From the NCBI RefSeq assembly GCF_003790525.1, contig NZ_CP033635.1: a DNA stretch of 64,000 bases; one strand, written 5' to 3'. This document shows, piece by piece, positions 18,759-19,018 of this stretch (the first letter of the stretch is position 1; each line of letters begins with the position of its first letter). The notes below the pieces were generated by a model. The model did no database searches. It saw only the letters and a program-made list of their open reading frames with translations, and was not told the origin of the DNA. The DNA comes from Escherichia coli. GTDB lineage: Bacteria > Pseudomonadota > Gammaproteobacteria > Enterobacterales > Enterobacteriaceae. A program made the position numbers and the translations under genes.

Positions 18759-19018
18759 CTCATTATCCCTGTAAAACGCGCCCTCAGCCCACATCCATGT
18801 GGGCTGCCCCGGCCTTCGGGGAACGCTTCAGCGATTTTGACGCCACCAACACCGGTGCGGTTTGTAATTAAAGCGCAAGAACATCTTTAAATGAAAACGA
18901 ATACTCTACTGCTCCTTATGCATAACATTTCCTTTTAATTGCAACTTTACTCGTCCTTCCGCTTTCAGTAGTGTGTCATCGCGCATTTCGACTTCATCTT
19001 TGCAAGGACTGGGTTTTC

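Follow-up and report, generated by a model that had tools for sequence, protein, structure and literature searches.

The hairpin consensus of CsrA/RsmE, established by SELEX and structural work, is ACANGGANGU or RUACARGGAUGU, and in CsrB/CsrC and RsmY/RsmZ the GGA is presented in hairpin loops, with a spacing of sites that is suited to one CsrA dimer. The TwoAYGGAY motif of Gammaproteobacteria consists of two adjacent hairpins with AYGGAY loops and a P1 stem that is “often very large”; it is an orphan motif, and is present in many copies per genome, for example in Psychromonas (Weinberg et al. 2010). Independently, it has been proposed as a binder of CsrA (PMC4333381).

Elements of the IS1111 group (IS110 family) are characterized by subterminal inverted repeats (IRs) and by a long non-coding region downstream of the transposase gene (tnp), and a promoter at the junction of circular intermediates has been reported for ISEc11 (PMC11187229). 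According to the seekRNA rule for IS1111-type elements, short segments of the RNA correspond to the two target strands and have an overlap at the crossover. Insertion into REPs is known for the IS110 family, in the cases of IS621 and ISPa11 (PMC11187229), and the targeting of palindromic repeats by IS110/IS1111 elements is, as such, already known.

Here we compare with these systems a locus in a 64,000-nucleotide stretch of Escherichia coli DNA (“the window”, which refers to this stretch at its full length), where two adjacent palindromes stand next to a copy of ISEc81. The palindromes are native chromosomal DNA, which lies outside the IS and is older than its insertion. Very probably, they are parts of a ~265-bp structured repeat and are neighbours of the ISEc81 target, without being read by the IS themselves.

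The palindromes and the adjacent copy of ISEc81

The sequence at 18780-18825 is gccctCAGCCCACATCCATGTGGGCTGCCCCGGCCTTCGGGGaacg. A preliminary description of the window had reported two adjacent palindromes here, the first with a 10-bp stem, and both are present. They are listed with the distal partner of the second.

18785-18806, minus strand: palindrome 1, CAGCCCACATCCATGTGGGCTG; this is hairpin 1 of the repeat, which reads CAGCCCAC-AUGGAU-GUGGGCUG on the minus strand.
18807-18821, minus strand: palindrome 2, CCCCGGCCTTCGGGG; in the consensus fold, this contains the 5′ strands of helices 4-6 of the long-range closing stem.
17345-17362, minus strand: distal partner of palindrome 2; this contains the 3′ strands of helices 4-6, and is 1.4 kb away across the IS.

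Palindrome 1 has perfect 10-bp arms around CC, which physically amounts to an 8-bp stem with the loop ATCCAT, and palindrome 2 has 5-bp arms and a 5-nt loop. Together they occupy the region 19-57 bp beyond the IS end, and the pair starts 27 bp beyond the inverted repeat at 18748-18758. The window is enriched in perfect hairpins whose stems are 10 bp or longer (6 distinct hairpins, compared with 0.83 expected from Markov resamples), so a single hairpin of this type is not decisive, and it is conservation that is.

The features of the adjacent element are as follows.

17381-18764, minus strand: ISEc81 (IS1111 group, IS110 family), 1384 bp plus an AT core, delimited by comparison with the empty site.
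17654-18679, minus strand: transposase gene, 341 aa, with the domains DEDD_Tnp_IS110 and Transposase_20.
18748-18758, no strand assigned: left subterminal inverted repeat of the IS, 11 bp, with its partner at 17383-17393.
17383-17393, no strand assigned: right subterminal inverted repeat of the IS, 11 bp, with its partner at 18748-18758.

This element is an ISfinder entry that is already known, and it is of a known kind. Of the 341 residues of its transposase, all but 4 agree with ISEc81 as listed in the ISfinder protein set of Siddiquee et al. 2024 (PMC11187229), and the protein matches PF01548 (DEDD, RuvC-like, N-terminal; 3.3e-15) and PF02371 (C-terminal; 1.1e-24). The inverted repeat to which attention had been drawn at 18748-18758 (ggagcgtccat) is real; it pairs with 17383-17393, and is the subterminal IR of the IS. 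Non-coding stretches of 273 nt and 85 nt lie downstream and upstream of tnp, respectively. Membership of the IS1111 group is indicated by the DEDD and PF02371 domains, the subterminal IRs, the downstream non-coding region, and a single target and orientation. If the two IS ends (17381-17425 and 18735-18764) were joined via one AT, they would create a near-consensus promoter (TTGCAT-N16-TATAAT) that faces the transposase gene. ISEc81 has in common with ISEc11, ISPa11 and ISKpn4 its subterminal IRs, its downstream non-coding region, its site and orientation specificity, and a predicted circle-junction promoter. It differs from other IS1111-group elements in that its target is the loop and stem of the second hairpin of the repeat, and in that its guide is only predicted.

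The boundaries of the IS are given by the IS-free K-12 alleles at aqpZ-lysO and yohP-dusC, both of which read ...gcgaggtaacATccctgtaaaacgcgccctcagcccacatccatgtgggctgccccggccttcaggg.... The AT core is found on both sides of the IS (17379-80 and 18765-66), the IS end proper is 18764, and the IS length is identical in 10 copies. Since the aqpZ-lysO allele of K-12 lacks the IS and keeps the palindromes, the palindromes are native. Their presence in all IS copies had been named as a sign that they might be internal to the IS; they do stand beside 10 of 10 copies, but lie outside the element in each case, and they recur because the conserved repeat to which they belong is where the IS always inserts, and not because they are part of the IS.

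The preliminary description had also considered that the palindromes might be a native REP-like element or a native terminator. The first of these suggestions was borne out, as the palindromes are present in the IS-free aqpZ-lysO and yohP-dusC spacers of K-12 and are part of a multi-copy structured repeat. An intrinsic terminator, serving either aqpZ or a transcript antisense to lysO, would be in keeping with a GC-rich stem in an intergenic region, but no T-run follows the stem on either strand, and a scan of 18600-19100 returned no terminator-like site on either strand. In K-12, moreover, aqpZ has a hairpin and T run of its own right after the stop codon, and the sequence seen here is found unchanged at loci with other gene orientations. 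The terminator was rejected for want of the combination of GC-rich stem-loop and T-run, and we regard it as very improbable indeed.

Extent, distribution and fold of the repeat

The repeat unit is ~265 bp in length, as defined by aligned copies, and is split here by the IS into two parts. The limits of the distal part come from aligning the copies at four E. coli loci with those of E. albertii and Klebsiella.

18765-18858, minus strand: proximal (5′) part of the repeat, with the closing stem (5′ strands), hairpin 1 and one half of hairpin 2.
17209-17380, minus strand: distal (3′) part of the repeat, with a GC-rich hairpin (17262-17293), a terminal hairpin (helices 12-13) and the closing stem (3′ strands).

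Of 5426 complete E. coli genomes, 5425 contain the 61-mer at 18775-18835, which includes both palindromes; the median number of places per genome is 3 (range 1-5), while the whole repeat occupies 10 places in one E. coli record. Its loci in E. coli are aqpZ-lysO and yohP-dusC, and some strains have further copies at yegH-asmA and ybaP-copA, with the IS inserted there. E. albertii also has the repeat, and in Klebsiella it is found with 83-86% identity at up to 13 places per record. (The K. pneumoniae record with 13 places is labelled a plasmid in PLSDB, yet is 5.37 Mb long.) A search of phages did not find the repeat. The K-12 RefSeq annotation has no repeat feature in the aqpZ-lysO or yohP-dusC spacer, and a literature search returned no published name for the E. 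coli repeat.

Two further arrangements were seen. The asmA-yegH spacer of K-12 W3110 (locus L125, 700-900) contains a third, more divergent copy that comprises the distal part only; in this yegH copy, a deletion between two CGGGTA direct repeats removed both GGA hairpins. In CP070152.1 (locus L132), the repeat and ISEc81 are flipped between aqpZ and lysO relative to locus L126, and the spacer on the aqpZ side differs, which points to either an independent insertion of the repeat or a local inversion.

Like REP/BIME and ERIC (IRU) sequences, the repeat is intergenic, palindromic and multi-copy, and is found in either orientation. It is set apart from them, by description, in being far longer, with a more elaborate fold, fewer copies and strand-specific GGA loops.

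The strand that folds is the minus strand of the window. In this fold, two hairpins lie side by side within a long composite closing stem; their loops are ACAUGGAUGU (hairpin 1) and ACAGGGAUGU (hairpin 2), 18 nt apart, and they are followed by the GC-rich and terminal hairpins. Hairpin 2, GGGCGCG-UUUUACAGGGAUGUUACCU-CGCGCCC, is the sequence that is split by the IS. The minus-strand RNA of an intact copy folds with -139.9 kcal/mol (z = -4.96). An alignment of seven Escherichia and three Klebsiella copies (A3) has a consensus of 78 pairs, with 96.4% of cells paired, and compensatory double changes are present at 20 of the 78 pairs, compared with 8.1±1.7 in shuffles (0/500 reach 20) and 3-5 in slid controls. 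The minus strand has 34 G.U pairs versus 5 A.C cells, and this excess marks it as the structurally constrained strand.

The two palindromes have different places in this fold. Palindrome 1 is a local hairpin (helix 7 of A3), in which 3 of 9 pairs are compensated (AU to GC four times; CG to GC; AU to GC) and the AUGGAU loop is invariant; when copies of Escherichia are compared with those of Klebsiella, the stem of palindrome 1 covaries. In the consensus fold, palindrome 2 is mainly one strand of the long-range closing stem, and not a local hairpin. The closing stem (helices 1-6) has 34 pairs, 8 of which have compensatory changes, and the pairing between palindrome 2 and its partner has two independent compensations (CG to UA in the yegH copy, and UA to CG in L132). 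The palindrome 2 alleles differ among copies (ccccgaagg, ccctgaagg and cctgtagg), and the local 5-bp hairpin is a possible alternative fold in all of them, via a G.U pair. The window itself has a C.A mismatch at a compensated pair of palindrome 2, which is to be expected because its two halves derive from different copies of the repeat, by way of an inversion (see below).

Insertion site, candidate guide RNA and inversion

The exact transposase sequence was located at ten places in five gene contexts. In 10 of 10 ISEc81 copies, the junctions are ACAGGGAT-IS-ATGTTACC, in hairpin 2, and the orientation with respect to the repeat is constant; the fuller junction, likewise found in all ten, is ...gcccACATGGATGTgggctgagggcgcgttttACAGGGAT-IS-ATgttacctcgcgccc.... 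The insertion point, 19 bp from palindrome 1, is the AT of the hairpin 2 loop (ACAGGGAT-ATGUUACC). The features on which the following rests are these.

18765-18783, minus strand: hairpin 2, 5′ half, GGGCGCGUUUUACAGGGAU, ending in the AT core (18765-66); from the K-12 empty site and 10 IS flanks.
17365-17380, minus strand: hairpin 2, 3′ half, AUGUUACCUCGCGCCC, starting with the AT core (17379-80); from the K-12 empty site and 10 IS flanks.
17486-17565, minus strand: candidate seekRNA/bridge RNA, downstream of tnp; predicted stem with an internal loop, z = -3.9.

On the 5′ side of the internal loop of the candidate guide, GAGGUAACA (17535-17543) is the same as the target strand as far as the core A; shuffles yield a 9-mer match at some position of the 39-bp target in 3.9% of cases (P ~0.04). 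On the 3′ side of the loop, GGAUG (17510-17514) spans GG-AT-G of the other strand, a match of only 5 nt. In the modelled RNA, the order of these segments and their overlap agree with the seekRNA rule for IS1111-type elements, and a pairing of the guide with hairpin 2 is predicted. We infer that the target of ISEc81 is approximately GGATGTTACCTC, a stretch of ~12 bp that is wholly inside hairpin 2 and centred on the insertion point. No ISEc81 target was found to be described in a search of the literature. Klebsiella copies of the repeat (loci L136-L139) have GCAGGGACGC in loop 2, with GGACGCTGCCTC at the position of the ISEc81 target, and so should not be targets of this element.

ISEc81 would thus be RNA-guided, with a short guide in its downstream non-coding RNA matching ~12 bp of hairpin 2, and this match would lead to insertion at the AT in the hairpin 2 loop at each copy. 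The palindromes would then be bystanders of the target within one conserved repeat. Alternatively, as the preliminary description had proposed, the palindromes could be a structural context that is recognized by the IS, for example as an extruded hairpin that recruits the complex of transposase and RNA. IS110/IS1111 elements often insert in palindromic repeats such as REPs (PMC11187229), the palindromes adjoin all 10 IS copies examined, and the insertion point is itself within a hairpin loop; given this constant association, local DNA structure may contribute to target capture. However, an IS that inserts into one conserved repeat will necessarily show this association. Matches of the predicted guide segments are confined to hairpin 2, with a target of ~12 bp there, and comparison of the candidate guide with the palindromes gave no match in 18785-18821, where hairpin 1 has only GGATGT in common with the inferred target. 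In the case of ISEc11, short linear targets of ~12 bp are enough (PMC11187229). Recognition of the palindromes as such is, in our judgement, improbable, and insertion guided by a match to hairpin 2 is the reading that we prefer.

In the window, the region 17000-19100 contains a yohP-IS-lysO junction, with yohP/mdtQ on one side and lysO/hcp on the other, which is common to 98 complete E. coli genomes. The palindromes had been assigned to a flank in the aqpZ-ybjE intergenic region; this is right for the lysO side but does not extend to the aqpZ side, since the opposite flank of the IS is yohP/mdtQ. The locus in this genome is therefore a recombinant yohP-IS-lysO junction, rather than the plain aqpZ-ybjE spacer. 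In CP054353.1, the reciprocal dusC-IS-aqpZ junction also has a copy of ISEc81 (loci L130 and L131), and the two junctions together imply an inversion of ~1.3 Mb. The two repeat copies of K-12 are mutually inverted and lie at ~0.915 and ~2.229 Mb, and recombination between inverted, IS-bearing copies of the repeat explains the ~1.3-Mb inversion; the crossover could be either homologous or transposase-mediated. The midpoint of the inversion is at ~1.57 Mb, so that it is roughly symmetric about the replication terminus, which we take to be near this point in K-12.

In the flank of this junction, mdtQ (window 15409-16935) is an intact ORF of 508 aa from the first start codon (478 aa as annotated in SMS-3-5), and its K-12 counterpart is annotated as a pseudogene. 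Elsewhere in the window, 33473-36406 contains two tandem paralogous stretches (72-77% identity, 2348 bp apart), which are probably paralogous genes that are unrelated to the repeat.

Relatives of the repeat and its possible roles

At gathering thresholds, no Rfam model matched at the palindromes, either in the window or in any of 15 related loci. In a permissive scan of the intact yohP-dusC copy of K-12, the one match of note was TwoAYGGAY (RF01731), on the minus strand at 30.9 bits (E = 0.0074), a score that is below the 43-bit gathering cut-off, with a match over the full length of the model (1-168). In the RF01731 alignment, palindrome 1 is the first AYGGAY hairpin. (An AgvB match at 17175-17235 was sub-threshold, with E = 0.19, and was discarded as a chance hit.) We consider the E. 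coli/Klebsiella repeat to be a sub-threshold relative of the orphan TwoAYGGAY class. As in TwoAYGGAY, twin hairpins with A-N-GGA-Y loops are set in a long, covarying P1 stem. Loop 1 of E. coli (AUGGAU) fits the motif, whereas loop 2 is AGGGAU (AGGGAC in Klebsiella), with R for Y at position 2; AGGGAY loops occur both in the original TwoAYGGAY alignment and among the 67 family members described below. The E. coli repeat further differs in having an additional ~100 nt with two more hairpins, and only a few copies (about 2-5) per genome.

A wider family was found by a scan, with each species represented by a single genome, for pairs of ACAKGGAUGU motifs separated by 8-30 nt, which yielded at least 120 loci. 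Among the matches listed, most are from Gammaproteobacteria, with many copies per genome, and one is from a Firmicutes MAG; the genera among them include Shewanella, Marinobacter, Pseudoxanthomonas, Lysobacter and Psychromonas, in addition to several MAGs. The layout of the listed matches is that of a long outer stem, a short closing stem, a hairpin, a linker and a second hairpin. One of the copies that this loop pattern retrieved, from Psychromonas, reaches 68.4 bits against RF01731, which is above the cut-off. In an alignment of 67 members, which were retrieved by their loop pattern, the loops are invariant and the stem pairs of the first hairpin have 23-40 double changes. Also among the matches listed, the sense strand folds better than the antisense strand in 72 of 92 cases (p = 1e-10), and orientation relative to the flanking ORFs has no clear bias (37 versus 28). 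No recurrent linked gene, such as a mobilizing transposase, emerged from an all-against-all BLAST of 979 neighbouring ORFs, which recovered housekeeping families only. Near-identical copies of family members occur within single genomes of other Gammaproteobacteria.

Two details of the scan may be added. In three sets of loci (L075-L084, L086-L095 and L015-L020), the outer ends and an inner closing stem are conserved among copies from the same genome, with 10-15 bp in the middle of the long stem that are copy-specific and still almost perfectly self-complementary. At L044 (1138-1205), the loop pattern also caught a Bacillaceae-1 RNA (48.9 bits) beside 5S rRNA in Lysinibacillus; Bacillaceae-1 is another orphan motif with twin ACAUGGAUGU loops, and is a proposed CsrA binder.

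Both loops of the repeat fit the CsrA hairpin consensus ACANGGANGU, which would give two GGA sites per putative dimer, and on the basis of sequence CsrA binding by the repeat is plausible. In this respect the repeat is like CsrB/CsrC and RsmY/RsmZ, as it presents loop GGA that match ACANGGANGU, at two sites with one-dimer spacing; it is unlike them in that its sites number only two, it is distributed like a repeat, and neither a promoter nor a terminator is evident. One possibility, which we put forward tentatively, is that the repeat is a CsrA-binding module, with the minus-strand hairpins binding one CsrA dimer, either as a sponge or as a regulatory site carried in UTRs. Apart from the match to the CsrA/RsmE consensus, this is favoured by the invariance of the loops, with covarying stems, in the 67 family members retrieved by loop pattern, and by the proposal of TwoAYGGAY as a CsrA binder (PMC4333381). 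In addition, at two of four E. coli loci, the sense strand lies just 3′ of a co-directional gene (dusC and yegH). On the other hand, two of the E. coli copies run antisense to the genes on either side, and orientation with respect to neighbours is near random in the wider family. In the CsrA table of Potts et al. 2017, in which intergenic copies are unlisted and reads from repeats may have been discarded, dusC and ybjE have “No” in four Yes/No columns that presumably refer to CLIP peaks.

The same near-random orientation would be expected if the repeat were selfish or neutral DNA of the REP/MITE type, with no host role, whose single-stranded hairpins serve its own spread or recombination. We consider this quite possible, at somewhat short of an even chance. 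It accords with the variation in copy number (1-5 of the 61-mer per E. coli genome, 10 whole repeats in one record, and up to 13 places in Klebsiella), with the presence of the repeat in either orientation between aqpZ and lysO depending on lineage (L126 versus L132), with the decay of the yegH copy in K-12, and with the near-identical copies in single genomes of other Gammaproteobacteria. However, there is no transposase or other recurrent gene beside the copies, neither terminal inverted repeats nor target duplications were clearly visible, and the strand-specific G.U bias and invariant loops need a reader that is itself strand-specific. CsrA binding and REP/MITE-like spread are compatible, and can both hold. 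Our best guess is that the twin loops, when transcribed, would bind a dimeric RNA-binding protein, most likely CsrA, and that the repeat would meanwhile spread or persist like an element of the REP/MITE type.

A broader proposal is that the E. coli/Klebsiella repeat is part of a very widespread strand-specific twin-hairpin family, in Gammaproteobacteria and some Firmicutes, whose members have two optimal CsrA-type loops set in a long stem and could be mobile RNA or ssDNA modules that link genes to Csr/Rsm or titrate it, or in which the copy-specific stem is a specificity determinant, and that ISEc81-like IS evolved as their parasites. We regard this as unlikely, but worth stating.

Three items appear to be undescribed in the literature searched: the form that the motif takes in E. 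coli and Klebsiella, with a fold supported by covariation; the assignment of the ISEc81 target and candidate guide; and the link of the repeat and ISEc81 to the inversion. For the flank examined here, the result is that there is no need to regard the palindromes either as a part of the IS or as the signal that it recognizes. For ISEc81, a natural target is now defined and a guide proposed, and both are fit for the seekRNA/bridge-RNA framework. Two inverted copies of the ISEc81-bearing repeat mark a ~1.3-Mb inversion that spans the terminus, in about 98 complete genomes. Finally, in E. coli K-12 a structured repeat that is absent from the annotation, and whose fold has the support of covariation, presents two hairpins of the CsrA consensus, and K-12 is thus a tractable organism for asking what role the orphan TwoAYGGAY class may have.
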